Sequence record: MZ417521
Origin: Escherichia phage 132
Length of the DNA stretch: 64,000 nucleotides
Strand: one strand, 5' to 3'
The position numbers were made by a program, and so were the translations under genes. Every line of letters begins with the position of its first letter. Positions within the stretch are counted from its first letter, which is position 1. Shown one piece after another: positions 16,016-63,283 of this stretch. The notes beneath the pieces are model-generated. The model saw only the letters and a list, made by a program, of their open reading frames with translations. It was not told the DNA's origin and did not search any database.

Positions 16016-16216
16016 ATGGTACAAAAATTAATGGCACTTGTTAATGCCATAAAAGGTAATAAAAAACGTATAGCTTTTACTATTTCTGCTATGATAGGAA
16101 TTTTACTCTGGAATTTTGTTTTATCACCAATTGCTATTGCTCATGGCGTTAATATTCCAGTAATTACTCTCGATACATTCGTAGATTTAGCATTTGCTTT
16201 GGTTGGGTTAATTTAA
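16016..16216 (+). CDS. small hydrophobic protein (two predicted TM helices), 66 aa; only plausible plus-strand gene
   Basis: ATG at 16016 preceded by AAGGAGG (16005-16011); sits in the 56-61 gap; stop overlaps the gene 61 stop. Confidence 0.4.
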   Translation: MVQKLMALVNAIKGNKKRIAFTISAMIGILLWNFVLSPIAIAHGVNIPVITLDTFVDLAFALVGLI

Positions 16217-17241
16217 ATCTTAGCATATTTAGATAGCCGCATTTTAGCCATCAACCCTTGGGCAATATTATTTTTCATATATTCCATAATTTGTTCAGGG
16301 GTTGCACCTTCCTTTCTAATCATATCATTAACATCTTTTGATTTCCAGGGAGATTTGTCCCAAAACATAACCCTTTCTCCTGCATCAACCAATTTAGTCA
16401 TTCGTTTAATAGTGTCAGGATGACGAGGTTCATTATCTAAAACCCATACACGTCTATCTTTAAATGGAACAATTTCTAGGTCTAATTGACCACCCGTAAT
16501 AGCTATACCGTTTTCAATAAAAAGTGAATCTATAGGTCCTTCTAGAACATATACATCACCATCTTTAACCCGTTCAACTCCATAGATTTTTGTTGCCTCA
16601 GGATAAGCTTTGATGGTGATATATTTTTGAGGAGCATCTTTCTTTAATGCACGTCCTTGAAAAGACTCAGCTTTTCCATTAGCATTATAAATTGGAATAA
16701 CAAGACGAGGCTCAGATATTTCCTTTTTATATGTTCCCGGTGCTATACTATTAACTAATTTAGGCCATTCGGTTGTAAACCAAAGATATTTCCATTTATC
16801 CTTTGGAATACAGCGAGCTTTTACGTATTTTATAATTGGATGGTCTTCCGCCAGTTTATCTAATCTAATACATGACGGAAGAGATTTAATTATTTTCTTC
16901 TCAGGTTGTTTAGAAAGTTCTTTAGGTTTTTCTACTGGACGACTTTTACCTTTTTCTTTTCTTATTTCAAAGATATATTCACGATATAAATCAGGTTCAA
17001 ACTCCTTTAAATATATTCCGATTGGTGCATGATAGTTACAGTTATAACAATGAATATTTCCTTCATTATTATCACCATAATACCATCCACGGGCTTTATT
17101 TTGGTCGGTTTTTGAATCTCCACAAACAGGGCATCTAAACCGCAATTTAAAAGTTGAACTATTATTTACTTGTGTGAATTTAGGTAAATGAGCTAATGCA
17201 CGATATGCAAACTCATTATCAATCCAAGGTATTGATGACAT
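16213..17241 (-). CDS. 61: DNA primase gp61, 342 aa
   Basis: N-terminal zinc ribbon (CPVCGDS...CYNC); same length as T4 gp61; adjacent to the helicase 41 region. Confidence 0.88.
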   Translation of the reverse strand: MSSIPWIDNEFAYRALAHLPKFTQVNNSSTFKLRFRCPVCGDSKTDQNKARGWYYGDNNEGNIHCYNCNYHAPIGIYLKEFEPDLYREYIFEIRKEKGKSRPVEKPKELSKQPEKKIIKSLPSCIRLDKLAEDHPIIKYVKARCIPKDKWKYLWFTTEWPKLVNSIAPGTYKKEISEPRLVIPIYNANGKAESFQGRALKKDAPQKYITIKAYPEATKIYGVERVKDGDVYVLEGPIDSLFIENGIAITGGQLDLEIVPFKDRRVWVLDNEPRHPDTIKRMTKLVDAGERVMFWDKSPWKSKDVNDMIRKEGATPEQIMEYMKNNIAQGLMAKMRLSKYAKI

Positions 17242-17243
17242 TT

Positions 17244-17408
17244 TTACTCTTCTTTTTCTTTAGATTCCTCTTTTTTCTTTTTAGGAATCTGTTCAGGACC
17301 TTTATTTACTACAGCGCCTGACGTTGTTCCAGTAGAGATATTTTCAGGATTACCACCTGAATCTCCAGCGACCATATCTTCTTTAATAAATTCTTTATAT
17401 GTTTTCAT
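17244..17408 (-). CDS. small protein with internal-protein-like N-terminus (MKTYKEFIKED...), 54 aa; below the ORF-track cutoff
   Basis: ATG at 17406-17408 preceded by AGAGGT; first 9 residues match the capsid-targeting sequence of T4 internal proteins; hand-translated. Confidence 0.4.
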   Translation of the reverse strand: MKTYKEFIKEDMVAGDSGGNPENISTGTTSGAVVNKGPEQIPKKKKEESKEKEE

Positions 17409-17409
17409 A

Positions 17410-18036
17410 TTAACCTCTATTCATAAAAGCATTAAAAATTTGATCGTCAATAGAAACTTTTACTTTAGACTGTTTTTCTGATGGCAATTCATATCCGCAT
17501 ATTACAATTTTGTGATCAATATCAAAATACACAGAAGCAATATGATTAATGATGTTTTCAGTAAAGTCTAAATCAACATCAATATCTTTTTGACCACAAC
17601 CTAAAGGATAAATAATGCGAGTAATTCGATTATCTTTAACAAAGATTCCACCGACATACTCTGTGCTGCGTTTAAAGTCTACACGCCGACGAAATGAAAA
17701 ATATTCAGGCTCTTTATGAGCTCGGCTCATAGGACACAACGAGTAACTAGAGTAAGAGATGTCAAATCCTACGCCTTCGATATGAGCCAAAGTGTCATGA
17801 TTAAACCAATTATAATCGTACGCCAAGTCCATTAGATTATAATATGTAAAAGGCACCGGATTAACATCACTAGTCACAAGCATATAATTAGCAACTGCTA
17901 TAATTTCGTTGTTTTTAACGAATACAAACCGTGATTGATGCGAATGACCTGGACCCGCGTTTTCACGATTAATGATATAACACTGGGCACCTTTATATTT
18001 GTACGTGTCTTTGCACTTGTGCATTTGATAAAGCAT
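17410..18036 (-). CDS. hypothetical protein, 208 aa
   Basis: ATG ORF between sp and gene 61. Confidence 0.5.
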   Translation of the reverse strand: MLYQMHKCKDTYKYKGAQCYIINRENAGPGHSHQSRFVFVKNNEIIAVANYMLVTSDVNPVPFTYYNLMDLAYDYNWFNHDTLAHIEGVGFDISYSSYSLCPMSRAHKEPEYFSFRRRVDFKRSTEYVGGIFVKDNRITRIIYPLGCGQKDIDVDLDFTENIINHIASVYFDIDHKIVICGYELPSEKQSKVKVSIDDQIFNAFMNRG

Positions 18037-62038: not shown

Positions 62039-62341
62039 TTATTTACCTTTAATTACTTTAGCTGCTTCGATAGCCGCTTGCTGAAGGTCATCCATAGACA
62101 TACCGAATTTAGAAGCAAAGTTATCAATTTTCTTTTCGACAGCATTCAAAGGCTTGGCCTGTTTACCTTCATTAGCGCCAGGAAGAGCGAGAATACGCTC
62201 TTTGTCAATATAAAGGCTTACAAGTTTCTTACGGTCTTTATCGGACAAATCGTGAAATGAATGAGCCTTTTTATTTATAGCGGCTTCTAATTTACCTGCA
62301 CTCACTCGCGCTTCAGTAATAAATTCTTGATATGTTTTCAT
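62039..62341 (-). CDS. ipII: internal protein II with capsid-targeting sequence, 100 aa
   Basis: N-terminus MKTYQEFITEA matches the T4 internal-protein capsid-targeting sequence; T4 IPII length. Confidence 0.65.
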   Translation of the reverse strand: MKTYQEFITEARVSAGKLEAAINKKAHSFHDLSDKDRKKLVSLYIDKERILALPGANEGKQAKPLNAVEKKIDNFASKFGMSMDDLQQAAIEAAKVIKGK

Positions 62342-62362
62342 ATGTTTCCTTTAAATGTAAAT

Positions 62363-62377
62363 AGGCCGTATAGGCCT
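62363..62377 (-). terminator. short GC hairpin (aggcc-GUAUA-ggccu) between ipIII and ipII
   Basis: aggccgtataggcct palindrome at 62363-62377. Confidence 0.3.
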
Positions 62378-62379
62378 TA

Positions 62380-62958
62380 TTAATTACCACGGGCTGCATT
62401 AGCAACGGCGTAAGCGTACTGAACATTAGCGTCTTTAAACGTACCTTTAGAGGTGTCTATTTCTGCCTTAAAGCCGCCTTTAGCCATAACATCGGCAAAT
62501 TCTTTACGGAAAGCCATTGCATCAAGACCTTTCCATGATGATTTATGCTTGGCAAATTCAAGACCAGCGTAGTTGACAGCTTTAGCCAATTTATTATCAA
62601 TGACCCATTTACCAGCTTTAGGCACAAACACCGGGCCTTTCTGTTTAGAGAATAGTTTTAAATTCCAGCGACGAAGGTCACCGTCGGCTTTAACAAAAGC
62701 TGCGTCTAAGTTACTAGCAACAACATCTTCAATATGAGCAAATTTAAGCCCATCAACTTCAATATTTAGATCGTTACGCCAGCGTAGTCCTTCCCAAGCG
62801 AAGGCTTTAAAATCAGAAGCTTTTGTGGCTAGATATCGTTCAAGTGGAGCAGTTTTAGGATCAAAGCCGTTTCCGCCACGATAATTCCACTCGTCCTTAT
62901 TAATGCCTTGGACTTTTCCTGCAAAGGCCTCGGCGATAAATTCTTTATATGTTTTCAT
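62380..62958 (-). CDS. ipIII: internal protein III with capsid-targeting sequence, 192 aa
   Basis: N-terminus MKTYKEFIAEA; size close to T4 IPIII. Confidence 0.65.
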   Translation of the reverse strand: MKTYKEFIAEAFAGKVQGINKDEWNYRGGNGFDPKTAPLERYLATKASDFKAFAWEGLRWRNDLNIEVDGLKFAHIEDVVASNLDAAFVKADGDLRRWNLKLFSKQKGPVFVPKAGKWVIDNKLAKAVNYAGLEFAKHKSSWKGLDAMAFRKEFADVMAKGGFKAEIDTSKGTFKDANVQYAYAVANAARGN

Positions 62959-63022
62959 TTTTTGTTTCCTTGTTTGTTTTGATAGAGTAATTATACCATA
63001 TTAATACTTAAGCGTAAACAAT

Positions 63023-63283
63023 TTAAGCTTTACCGCCAGAAATAATTCCGAAGTTGTTAAAATCGTATTCAATATCGTCAACATCTACTTTAGGACTTGC
63101 TACGACATAAGCAATTTCACTACGTTTTGCATAGGTGTTGATTTCTTTACCATCGCCACCTAAGAAAGAATACCCATTACGTTTTAATGAGCCAAAGTCT
63201 TCCGCATCACCAATGAAAGCTTTAACTTTAAATTTTGGACCTTTGGCATCTGCTTCAATGATAAATTCTTGGTACATTTTCAT
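63023..63283 (-). CDS. additional internal-protein-like protein with capsid-targeting sequence, 86 aa
   Basis: N-terminus MKMYQEFIIEA; third member of the tandem IP cluster. Confidence 0.55.
   Translation of the reverse strand: MKMYQEFIIEADAKGPKFKVKAFIGDAEDFGSLKRNGYSFLGGDGKEINTYAKRSEIAYVVASPKVDVDDIEYDFNNFGIISGGKA

Follow-up and report, generated by a model that had tools for sequence, protein, structure and literature searches.

Gene 61.1 of T4-like phages encodes a candidate capsid-targeted head protein in which an internal-protein-type N-terminus precedes a copy of the maturation site and N-fist of gp23

We analysed a stretch of 64,000 nucleotides from Escherichia phage 132 (sequence record MZ417521; hereafter the window), a segment of a Tequatrovirus (T4-like) genome, and studied in it gene 61.1, a 54-codon open reading frame (ORF) on the minus strand at 17244-17408. 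We found that its product, gp61.1, opens with a decapeptide resembling the capsid-targeting sequence of the internal proteins (IPs) and runs on into a segment homologous to the maturation cleavage site and N-fist of the capsid protein gp23. We regard 61.1 as a candidate for a capsid-targeted head protein that is processed by the head protease gp21 and carries an unusual cargo.

Sequence and position identify the ORF as the orthologue of T4 gene 61.1 (NP_049649 / UniProt P39228). The two proteins are equal in length and identical at 52 of 54 residues, with Y4 and T26 here replaced by F4 and I26 in T4. The translation here, MKTYKEFIKEDMVAGDSGGNPENISTGTTSGAVVNKGPEQIPKKKKEESKEKEE (54 residues), matched the phrog_1823 profile with an E-value of 7e-34, residues 1-54 falling on profile positions 1-54. 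The gene lies immediately upstream of the primase gene 61, with gene 41 and the dmd cluster on its other side, as it does in the annotations of T4, P8, SF2-1, and G28, and the 2.2 kb around it are 97-98% identical to those of hundreds of T4-like phages of Escherichia, Shigella, and Yersinia. The coding sequence starts with an ATG at 17406-17408 and ends with a TAA at 17244-17246. A first-pass annotation had reported an ATG-initiated ORF of 54 codons between the gene of a 208-residue protein and gene 61, and an ORF listing with a minimum of 20 residues recovered it on the minus strand; it had been missing from the earlier ORF track because its product is shorter than the default cut-off of 60 residues. 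The ribosome-binding site AGAGGT that had been proposed was located at 17413-17418 (minus strand), with its GAGG 7 nucleotides from the ATG, and the minus-strand sequence 5' of the start reads AATAGAGGTTAATATG. The weight then given to the ORF being unlisted was misplaced, as this is a known gene annotated in T4 and hundreds of relatives; comparison with the 61.x ORFs of T4, which had been suggested as a check, leads directly to 61.1. In the literature searchable here, gp61.1 appears only in gene lists and tables, with no function assigned to the T4 protein.

The first ten codons (17379-17408, minus strand) encode MKTYKEFIKE, an IP-type targeting-like propeptide with a putative gp21 site, I8-K9-E10|D11. 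Three genes of the window, all on the minus strand, begin in nearly the same way. They encode proteins of 100 residues (62039-62341, MKTYQEFITE), 192 residues (62380-62958, MKTYKEFIAE), and 86 residues (63023-63283, MKMYQEFIIE), and match the PHROG 'internal virion/head protein' families phrog_7857, phrog_5341, and phrog_2667. The motif K[TSM][YF][QKE][ED][FV][ILMV]xE occurs at four sites in the six frames of the 64 kb, each after a start codon, in 61.1 and in the IP genes starting at 62341, 62958, and 63283, and it occurred in none of 300 shuffled sequences. In DNA alignment, 23 of the first 24 nucleotides of 61.1 are identical to those of two IP genes. The earlier proposal that MKTYKEFIKED matches the IP capsid-targeting starts at 62-63 kb is thus well founded, and so, at the level of sequence, is the proposed I-x-E site, with I8-K9-E10 fitting the I/L-x-E rule of gp21. 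As summarised in PMC9026906, mutagenesis of the IPIII targeting sequence (Mullaney and Black 1996) assigned targeting mainly to residues 4 and 7 and processing to residues 8 and 10; in that summary, Asp at position 10 blocked cutting and did not block targeting. Gp61.1 keeps all four determinants (Y4, or F4 in T4, F7, I8, and E10), and MKTYKEFIKE follows the MKTYQEFIAE targeting consensus, residues 4 and 7 included. Across the short members of the family, position 4 is aromatic, position 7 is F or V, position 8 is hydrophobic, and position 10 is Glu. An N-terminal signal of this kind has by itself been taken to identify an IP-type protein as packaged, for example in the anti-McrBC protein Bas37_0260 (bioRxiv 10.1101/2025.11.20.689424). 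We consider it plausible that the N-terminus of gp61.1 is likewise a capsid-targeting signal.

We compared 61.1 with gp23 because of the odd capsid name that the gene carries in GenBank. Relatives of 61.1 are mostly labelled 'hypothetical protein' or 'gp61.1' and at times 'major capsid domain-containing protein', and the latter, automated names mean that annotation pipelines had already noticed the similarity to gp23. BLASTP aligned residues 2-38 of gp61.1 with residues 57-93 of T4 gp23 without gaps (16 of 37 identical, E = 1e-8). With hhalign, a 65-member 61.1 family profile matched a gp23 N-terminal profile of nine sequences, built from a word-indexed search that returned fragments only, with a probability of 98.4% and an E-value of 8.5e-15, placing gp61.1 residues 6-46 in register with gp23 61-101. 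When the family profile was searched against 177,635 PDB sequences, chains of T4 gp23 were the sole matches (E = 2.3e-5). In this register, I8-K9-E10 of gp61.1 falls on L63-T64-E65 of gp23, so that E10 lies on E65, the residue after which we take gp21 to cut gp23, in agreement with the numbering of mature gp23* from residue 66. The homology extends beyond the N-terminus of mature gp23* to positions P1-P5. Codons 6-46 of 61.1 (17271-17393, minus strand) correspond to the part of gp23 that runs from the maturation cleavage site through the N-fist to the beginning of the N-arm. The N-fist of gp23* comprises residues 66-91 (PMC7136217); it is an unusual element that contacts four subunits and helps to build the Soc site (PMC9958956, PMC9546572, PMC7136217). 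Some distant T4-like capsid proteins, P0082 for instance, lack an N-fist. In the unexpanded prohead, the same segment is disordered inside the shell, probably touching the scaffold (PMC9546572).

The likeness to gp23 spans 41 ungapped columns with the cleavage Glu in register and with GD, NIA.G.TSGAV, and GP conserved, and in both proteins a basic patch follows the module (MVRR in gp23, KKKK in 61.1). The core of gp61.1 is a Gly/Ser-rich stretch of about 30 residues, MVAGDSGGNPENISTGTTSGAVVNKGP. The Aeromonas-type gp23 (…EINE|AVVTGDHNYDATQIAQGANSGAAVGVGP) comes closer still to the 61.1 consensus, and some long members of the 61.1 family read YLTEAEVAGDSGG against FLTEAEIGGDHGY in gp23. Unlike gp23, however, gp61.1 has no HK97-fold body (A, P, and I domains), and it did not match the Pfam Gp23 model PF07068 at E<=1. 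Given the lack of this match and the length of only 54 residues, 61.1 is a paralogue of one segment of gp23, not a capsid protein, and GenBank goes too far in naming it 'major capsid (domain-containing) protein'. The AlphaFold2 model of the 54-residue protein is mostly coil or disordered, with a predicted local distance difference test (pLDDT) score of 60, and such low confidence does not permit any inference from the fold.

Gene 61.1 belongs to a widespread family. A tblastn search found it in 1493 phage records, in Straboviridae infecting Escherichia, Klebsiella, Acinetobacter, Aeromonas, and Vibrio, and an exhaustive profile search gave 52 clusters at 50% identity. A word-indexed search with the 54-residue protein returned 17 close relatives only, and the long forms became visible only by the exhaustive profile search. 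We found that the family has two architectures. The short forms have 50-70 residues, many of them with N-termini of the type MK.[FY].[ED][FV][ILVM].E. The long forms (phrog_2086) have 120-250 residues, with the module at the C-terminus behind a domain of about 100 residues. They occur in Karamvirus/CC31-like, KVP40-like, and Aeromonas and Acinetobacter T4-like phages, where they too lie between gene 41 and the primase gene, and they are the gp61.1 of KVP40-type phages; the short form of a Dhakavirus also has this position. The common module reads [hydrophobic]-x-E-(A/D/E/S)-MVAGDSGG..NIASG.TSG.V..KGP…KK(R/K)K. In AlphaFold2 models, the N-domain of the long forms is predicted with moderate confidence to be mostly helical (pLDDT 78-89 for residues 10-70) and the module is predicted to be disordered. 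A Foldseek search of this N-domain against the PDB gave no match (best E = 4.6), and no family in Pfam or NCBIfam matched 61.1 or the long form. We also considered whether T4 encodes the N-domain of the long forms as a separate gene, and rejected this, as a hidden Markov model of the domain matched nothing in the window, nor anything in one complete short-form genome.

The cleavage-type motif is kept in both architectures. [ILVM]-x-E stands at most seven residues ahead of the MVAGD core in 56 of 68 members, long forms included, and two-residue insertions recreate the site (…FVKLNE|D, …FMKLTE|D, …FIRLKE|D). In a 164-residue long form from a Karamvirus, the putative site reads ...LNE|E-MVAGD. 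The residues N-terminal to A66 in gp23 have their known role as the protease site, which makes their retention in 61.1 the best sequence argument for a gp21-type site. This suggests that the 61.1 family keeps such a site and that gp61.1 is probably a substrate of gp21. The region after the core is less constant. The tail (codons 43-54, 17247-17282, minus strand), KKKKEESKEKEE, is Lys-rich and then acidic, as read from the sequence and the family table; its Lys/Arg run is kept throughout the family and the remainder varies. The Lys tail is encoded by runs of A in the window (17247-17282, minus strand). T6- and G28-like phages (17 contigs; L003 1494-1682; P0002, P0004) have a frameshifted variant of 62 residues (…KKKKRNLKKKKSKNVINTLD) whose coding sequence runs into the start of gene 61, which means that the Lys run of the tail is conserved and its acidic end is not. 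In three members (P0038, P0053, and P0055, of 247-251 and 149 residues), an extra C-terminal domain of about 100 residues opens with a targeting-like FKQFVE directly after the Lys tail, and several others (P0040, P0043, P0061, P0066) end in K[TS][FY]xE[FW] past it. From these placements, the amphipathic motif can occupy either end of the gp23-like module.

Gene 61.1 is under strong purifying selection, with a ratio of non-synonymous to synonymous substitution rates (dN/dS) of 0.03-0.29 between short-form lineages, for which dS is saturated. It is also dispensable, and dispensability is normal for internal proteins. In HIDEN-SEQ, a transposon-type essentiality screen, T4 61.1 was non-essential, with insertions at 13 of 13 sites, while gene 61 was 'Intermediate' and gp67 and gp68 were essential (bioRxiv 10.1101/2025.11.20.689424, supplementary file 7 for 61.1).

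We then examined the promoters around 61.1. The gene order is dmd-61.4-sp-adfA-61.1-61, with strong sigma-70-type early promoters ahead of dmd and 61.4. There is no sigma-70-type promoter directly ahead of 61.1, which places 61.1 within this early operon. Among 35 loci from IMG/VR, 12 have a perfect late promoter, TATAAATA, between -45 and -12 of the 61.1 ATG (0.086 expected); 11 of these boxes are at -21 or -24 and one is at -32, and the 12 loci represent five sequence-distinct lineages. A perfect late promoter precedes 61.1 in phages of the JS98/Dhakavirus type and in a Klebsiella phage with MKTYKEFVKLNE. Nearly all the remaining loci (21 of 23) agree with the box at 6 or 7 of its 8 positions (xATAAATA, xTTAAATA, or similar) at -17 to -27, among them the five T4-type loci with TATGAATA at -17. 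In the window, the best upstream match is this same TATGAATA, one mismatch from TATAAATA, at 17418-17425 (minus strand), -17 from the 61.1 ATG and within the last codons of adfA. The Dhakavirus CLB_P2 (OL770107.1) has 26 TATAAATA sites in 172 kb, nine of them on the forward, early-gene strand, and the forward sites include those ahead of an IP-like gene (36 nucleotides), the e lysozyme gene (30 nucleotides), inh (41 nucleotides), and 61.1 (21 nucleotides). It appears from these sites that ancestral 61.1, in the manner of genes for other head-internal proteins, had a late promoter to itself. The remnant TATGAATA at -17, set against TATAAATA in other genera, suggests that this promoter decayed and was lost in the T4 genus, where adfA abuts the gene. 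In the literature searchable here, we did not find described the homology of 61.1 to the gp23 maturation site and N-fist, the cleavage motif of the family, its two architectures, or the late promoter of 61.1.

Taken together, our preferred reading, which we hold tentatively and at a little short of even chances, is that gp61.1 reaches the prohead core by its targeting-type N-terminus, its gp23-like segment, or both, is cut by gp21 after Glu10, and leaves a peptide in or on the head. The evidence points to the prohead and its protease and in part supports the earlier proposal of a packaged peptide. We infer its targeting, cleavage, packaging, and downstream role from the features described above. 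During prohead assembly, gp61.1 would be recruited to the scaffolding core, the site of the internal proteins and of the uncleaved gp23 N-terminus. Cleavage by gp21 would yield a largely disordered peptide of 44 residues and 4.6 kDa, which would remain in or on the head. An own late promoter, as in most relatives, would fit action at the time of head assembly; in the T4 genus, the gene is read only from the early dmd-61.4-sp-adfA-61.1-61 operon. Candidates for a later role are an injected accessory or anti-defence peptide, like IPI and IPII, and a capsid-associated surrogate of the N-fist.

Several observations weigh against this reading. We found no experimental report in the literature of gp61.1 in proheads or virions or of its cleavage by gp21. 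P39228 is absent from a label-free T4 proteome time course that quantified Dmd (60 residues), 61.4, Sp, and 61.2 (PMC9697503 supplements); since gp61.1 contains a good tryptic peptide of 27 residues, this suggests that the protein is of low abundance. Gp61.1 is likewise unmentioned in the main text and the available part of the supplements of a mass-spectrometry study of the T4 head that mapped 13 sites in 9 proteins. The P1' residue of the putative site is Asp in 61.1 and Ala in gp23 and the IP genes of the window. The predicted mature peptide is acidic, with an isoelectric point (pI) of 5.0 against 9.5-9.7 for the 100- and 192-residue IPs, and 61.1 lies 45 kb from the IP locus, so that it is not a basic protein encoded in a hypervariable IP locus, a property that is typical of IPs and not strictly defining. 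The 86-residue IP-like protein has a pI of 5.3 after processing, and thus not all cargos of the IP locus are basic. In many relatives, the module is C-terminal in a protein of 120-250 residues, and the N-domain of these long forms replaces the targeting-type decapeptide.

The targeting-like N-terminus is also not confined to known head proteins. In CLB_P2, 61.1 (at 70165, plus strand) begins MKSFKEVMNE and UvsW.1 (at 144482, minus strand) begins MKSFKEVIYE|AS, identical at 8 of 10 residues and 25 of 30 nucleotides. In this one genome, the start of 61.1 is nearer to that of UvsW.1 than to those of the IP-like genes, MKTYNEFLNE and MKTYQEFSKS. T4 UvsW.1 starts MLLEFKQFLYE|AS. UvsW.1 is not known to be a head protein. 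Because UvsW.1 shares the motif, a targeting-like N-terminus is suggestive and not diagnostic. An N-terminus of this kind, ending in I/L-x-E, is present here on a partner of a recombination helicase.

The timing of expression in T4 also counts against packaging. There is no perfect late promoter near 61.1 in the window, where TATAAATA is depleted (three sites, all elsewhere, against a shuffle mean of 10.7), and the RNA of T4 61.1 is classed as 'early' only (PMC9697503 supplements). The late promoter of the relatives could equally serve the downstream primase gene. However, the IP genes of the window also have no TATAAATA directly upstream, one of them having an extended -10 early promoter, and IPIII protein climbs from the first time points of the T4 time course (PMC9697503 supplements). 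As IP genes too lack a near late box, early-only expression of 61.1 does not exclude packaging.

We weighed three further explanations against packaging. The strongest of them, which we think rather unlikely, is that gp61.1 is made early, stays unpackaged in the cytoplasm, and has an accessory or anti-defence role as a mimic of the gp23 N-terminus and the gp21 site; it could serve as a decoy, compete for a host sensor of capsid protein or of prohead-protease activity, or buffer gp21 activity. By location, 61.1 is a member of the early dmd/tifA/adfA operon and shares it with three proven counter-defence genes, in a region that has been termed an 'anti-TA (toxin-antitoxin) island', the other genes there being described as 'attractive anti-toxin candidates' (bioRxiv 10.1101/2022.04.14.488369). 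The early transcript class in T4, the dispensability on a laboratory host, and the homology to gp23 itself all fit such a protein. A substrate mimic would also have a target, since cleavage of an L-P-E loop by gp21 is the tripwire of a CBASS (cyclic oligonucleotide-based antiphage signaling system) defence (PMC12991175). Because hosts sense gp21 activity in this way, and also capsid proteins, a mimic of the capsid and of the protease site is a reasonable counter-defence candidate. On the other hand, early action does not account for the perfect late promoters in five sequence-distinct lineages, nor for the fact that the IP-type targeting residues 4 and 7 are kept. No known defence system reads gp23 residues 61-101, and the Lit/Gol determinant in gp23 presumably lies further downstream, at about residues 93-122. 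We found no literature report of 61.1 neutralising a host defence system, and the main text of the HIDEN-SEQ report gives no phenotype for 61.1, host-specific or other (bioRxiv 10.1101/2025.11.20.689424).

A long shot by comparison is a small replication-linked protein, in which a basic-tailed peptide acts with primase or helicase, the linkage and translational coupling to gene 61 are the relevant features, and the capsid-like sequences are leftovers. Gene 61.1 always lies just upstream of gene 61, in T4-type phages, in one Dhakavirus, in Karamvirus-like phages (with a 73-residue ORF between the two genes), and in KVP40-type phages. The gap to the gene 61 ATG is 2 nucleotides, and the final codons of 61.1 (GAA GAG) double as the purine-rich leader ahead of that ATG. 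The Lys/Arg-rich tail kept in the family would also suit a replication-linked peptide. However, since the order of all genes in the module is conserved, adjacency to gene 61 is weak evidence, and searches of Pfam, NCBIfam, and the PDB showed no likeness to replication proteins. Insertions are tolerated at all 13 sites in 61.1, and gene 61 itself is only 'Intermediate'. Moreover, the best-conserved part of the protein is the gp23-like core with its preceding Glu, which would not be expected of a leftover. That the ORF is a relic or chance ORF, formed by recombination from a gene 23 fragment and the 5' end of an IP gene and making no protein, we find barely credible. Its very short length, its mostly disordered prediction (pLDDT 60), and the failure to detect the protein in the T4 proteome time course are what such a relic would show, but a relic would not be conserved in 52 clusters from Straboviridae of Escherichia, Klebsiella, Acinetobacter, Aeromonas, and Vibrio, with a dN/dS of 0.03-0.29 at saturated dS, a good Shine-Dalgarno sequence at the correct spacing, and an own late promoter in many lineages.

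Returning to a packaged gp61.1, we compared it with its closest known counterparts. T4 gp61.1 shares its slot between 61.2 (adfA) and gene 61 and its operon. With IPI, IPII, IPIII, and the proteins of the IP locus, gp61.1 shares an N-terminal decapeptide identical at 8-9 of 10 positions, an I-x-E end to it, small size, and dispensability. Unlike them, it is encoded in an early replication and anti-defence cluster and not in the hypervariable IP loci, and its cargo is a disordered acidic peptide of 44 residues whereas theirs is a folded basic protein. The long forms share with short 61.1 the synteny slot and the C-terminal module and differ in the N-terminal part, as described above. T4 gp67 and gp68 and head proteins of SPN3US and phiKZ, which are small or propeptide-bearing, targeted to the core, and trimmed after Glu (PMC9958956, PMC5694885), serve as a working analogy. 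Gp67 and gp68 are essential in HIDEN-SEQ and 61.1 is not, and we claim no sequence relationship to them.

The immediate neighbours of 61.1 lie on the same strand. Upstream is gene 61.2 (adfA, anti-DarT factor A; 17410-18036, minus strand), which encodes the 208-residue protein and was identified by a match to Pfam PF23813 (E = 3e-136) and by the annotation of relatives. Its last codons (AGA GGT TAA) contain the AGAGGT of 61.1, and its stop codon (17410-17412) ends 1 nucleotide ahead of the 61.1 ATG. Some GenBank records, those of Shigella phage SF2-1 (L002 866-1492) and Salmonella phage pSe_SNUABM_01 among them, label 61.2/AdfA a 'putative major capsid protein', although AdfA itself is a clear match to PF23813; capsid-type names for 61.1 recur across records likewise. 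Further along in this direction follow sp, 61.4 (tifA), dmd, and gene 41, all on the minus strand. Downstream, gene 61 (DNA primase, 342 residues; 16213-17241, minus strand; ORF call and annotations) starts 2 nucleotides past the 61.1 stop and is followed by a terminator-like hairpin at 16050-16031 (minus strand). A hydrophobic ORF of 66 residues at 16016-16216 on the plus strand is convergent with gene 61 and overlaps its 3' end; the annotations of relatives list it as a hypothetical protein (L001 2686-2886, for example). The IP locus adjoins denV and carries the three genes with targeting sequences in the order 86, 192, and 100 residues (62039-63283, minus strand). One of the perfect TATAAATA sites of the window, at 62272-62279 (minus strand), lies about 60 nucleotides into the 100-residue IP-type gene (62039-62341) and may drive a downstream late gene.

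An improbable, more specific possibility is that gp61.1 is a free-standing, protease-processed copy of the N-fist that acts on the capsid itself. Such a copy could dock at sockets that have no neighbouring N-fist, beside gp24 or the portal vertices, or could be a rival of gp23 N-termini in binding the scaffold or the protease, and in either case it would tune maturation or expansion or add to the stability of the head. As a corollary of this possibility, the short forms, in which an IP-type targeting peptide meets the gp23-like core precisely at the cleavage Glu, suggest that a single signal, one in evolution and in mechanism, underlies both the IP targeting sequence and the end of the gp23 propeptide ([YF]-x-x-F-[IL]-x-E|A).

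Gene 61.1 has long been annotated and has stood without a function for 30 years. If gp61.1 is packaged as we propose, the T4 head would gain another prohead-targeted, gp21-processed component, and the first to carry as its cargo a copy of a capsid element rather than an unrelated anti-restriction protein. Read in this way, 61.1 would tie the targeting signal of the internal proteins to the maturation site of gp23. It would also give a simple sequence rule by which to find such proteins across the Straboviridae: a targeting-type start or a long N-domain, a hydrophobic-x-Glu site, an MVAGDSGG core, a Lys tail, and a late promoter.

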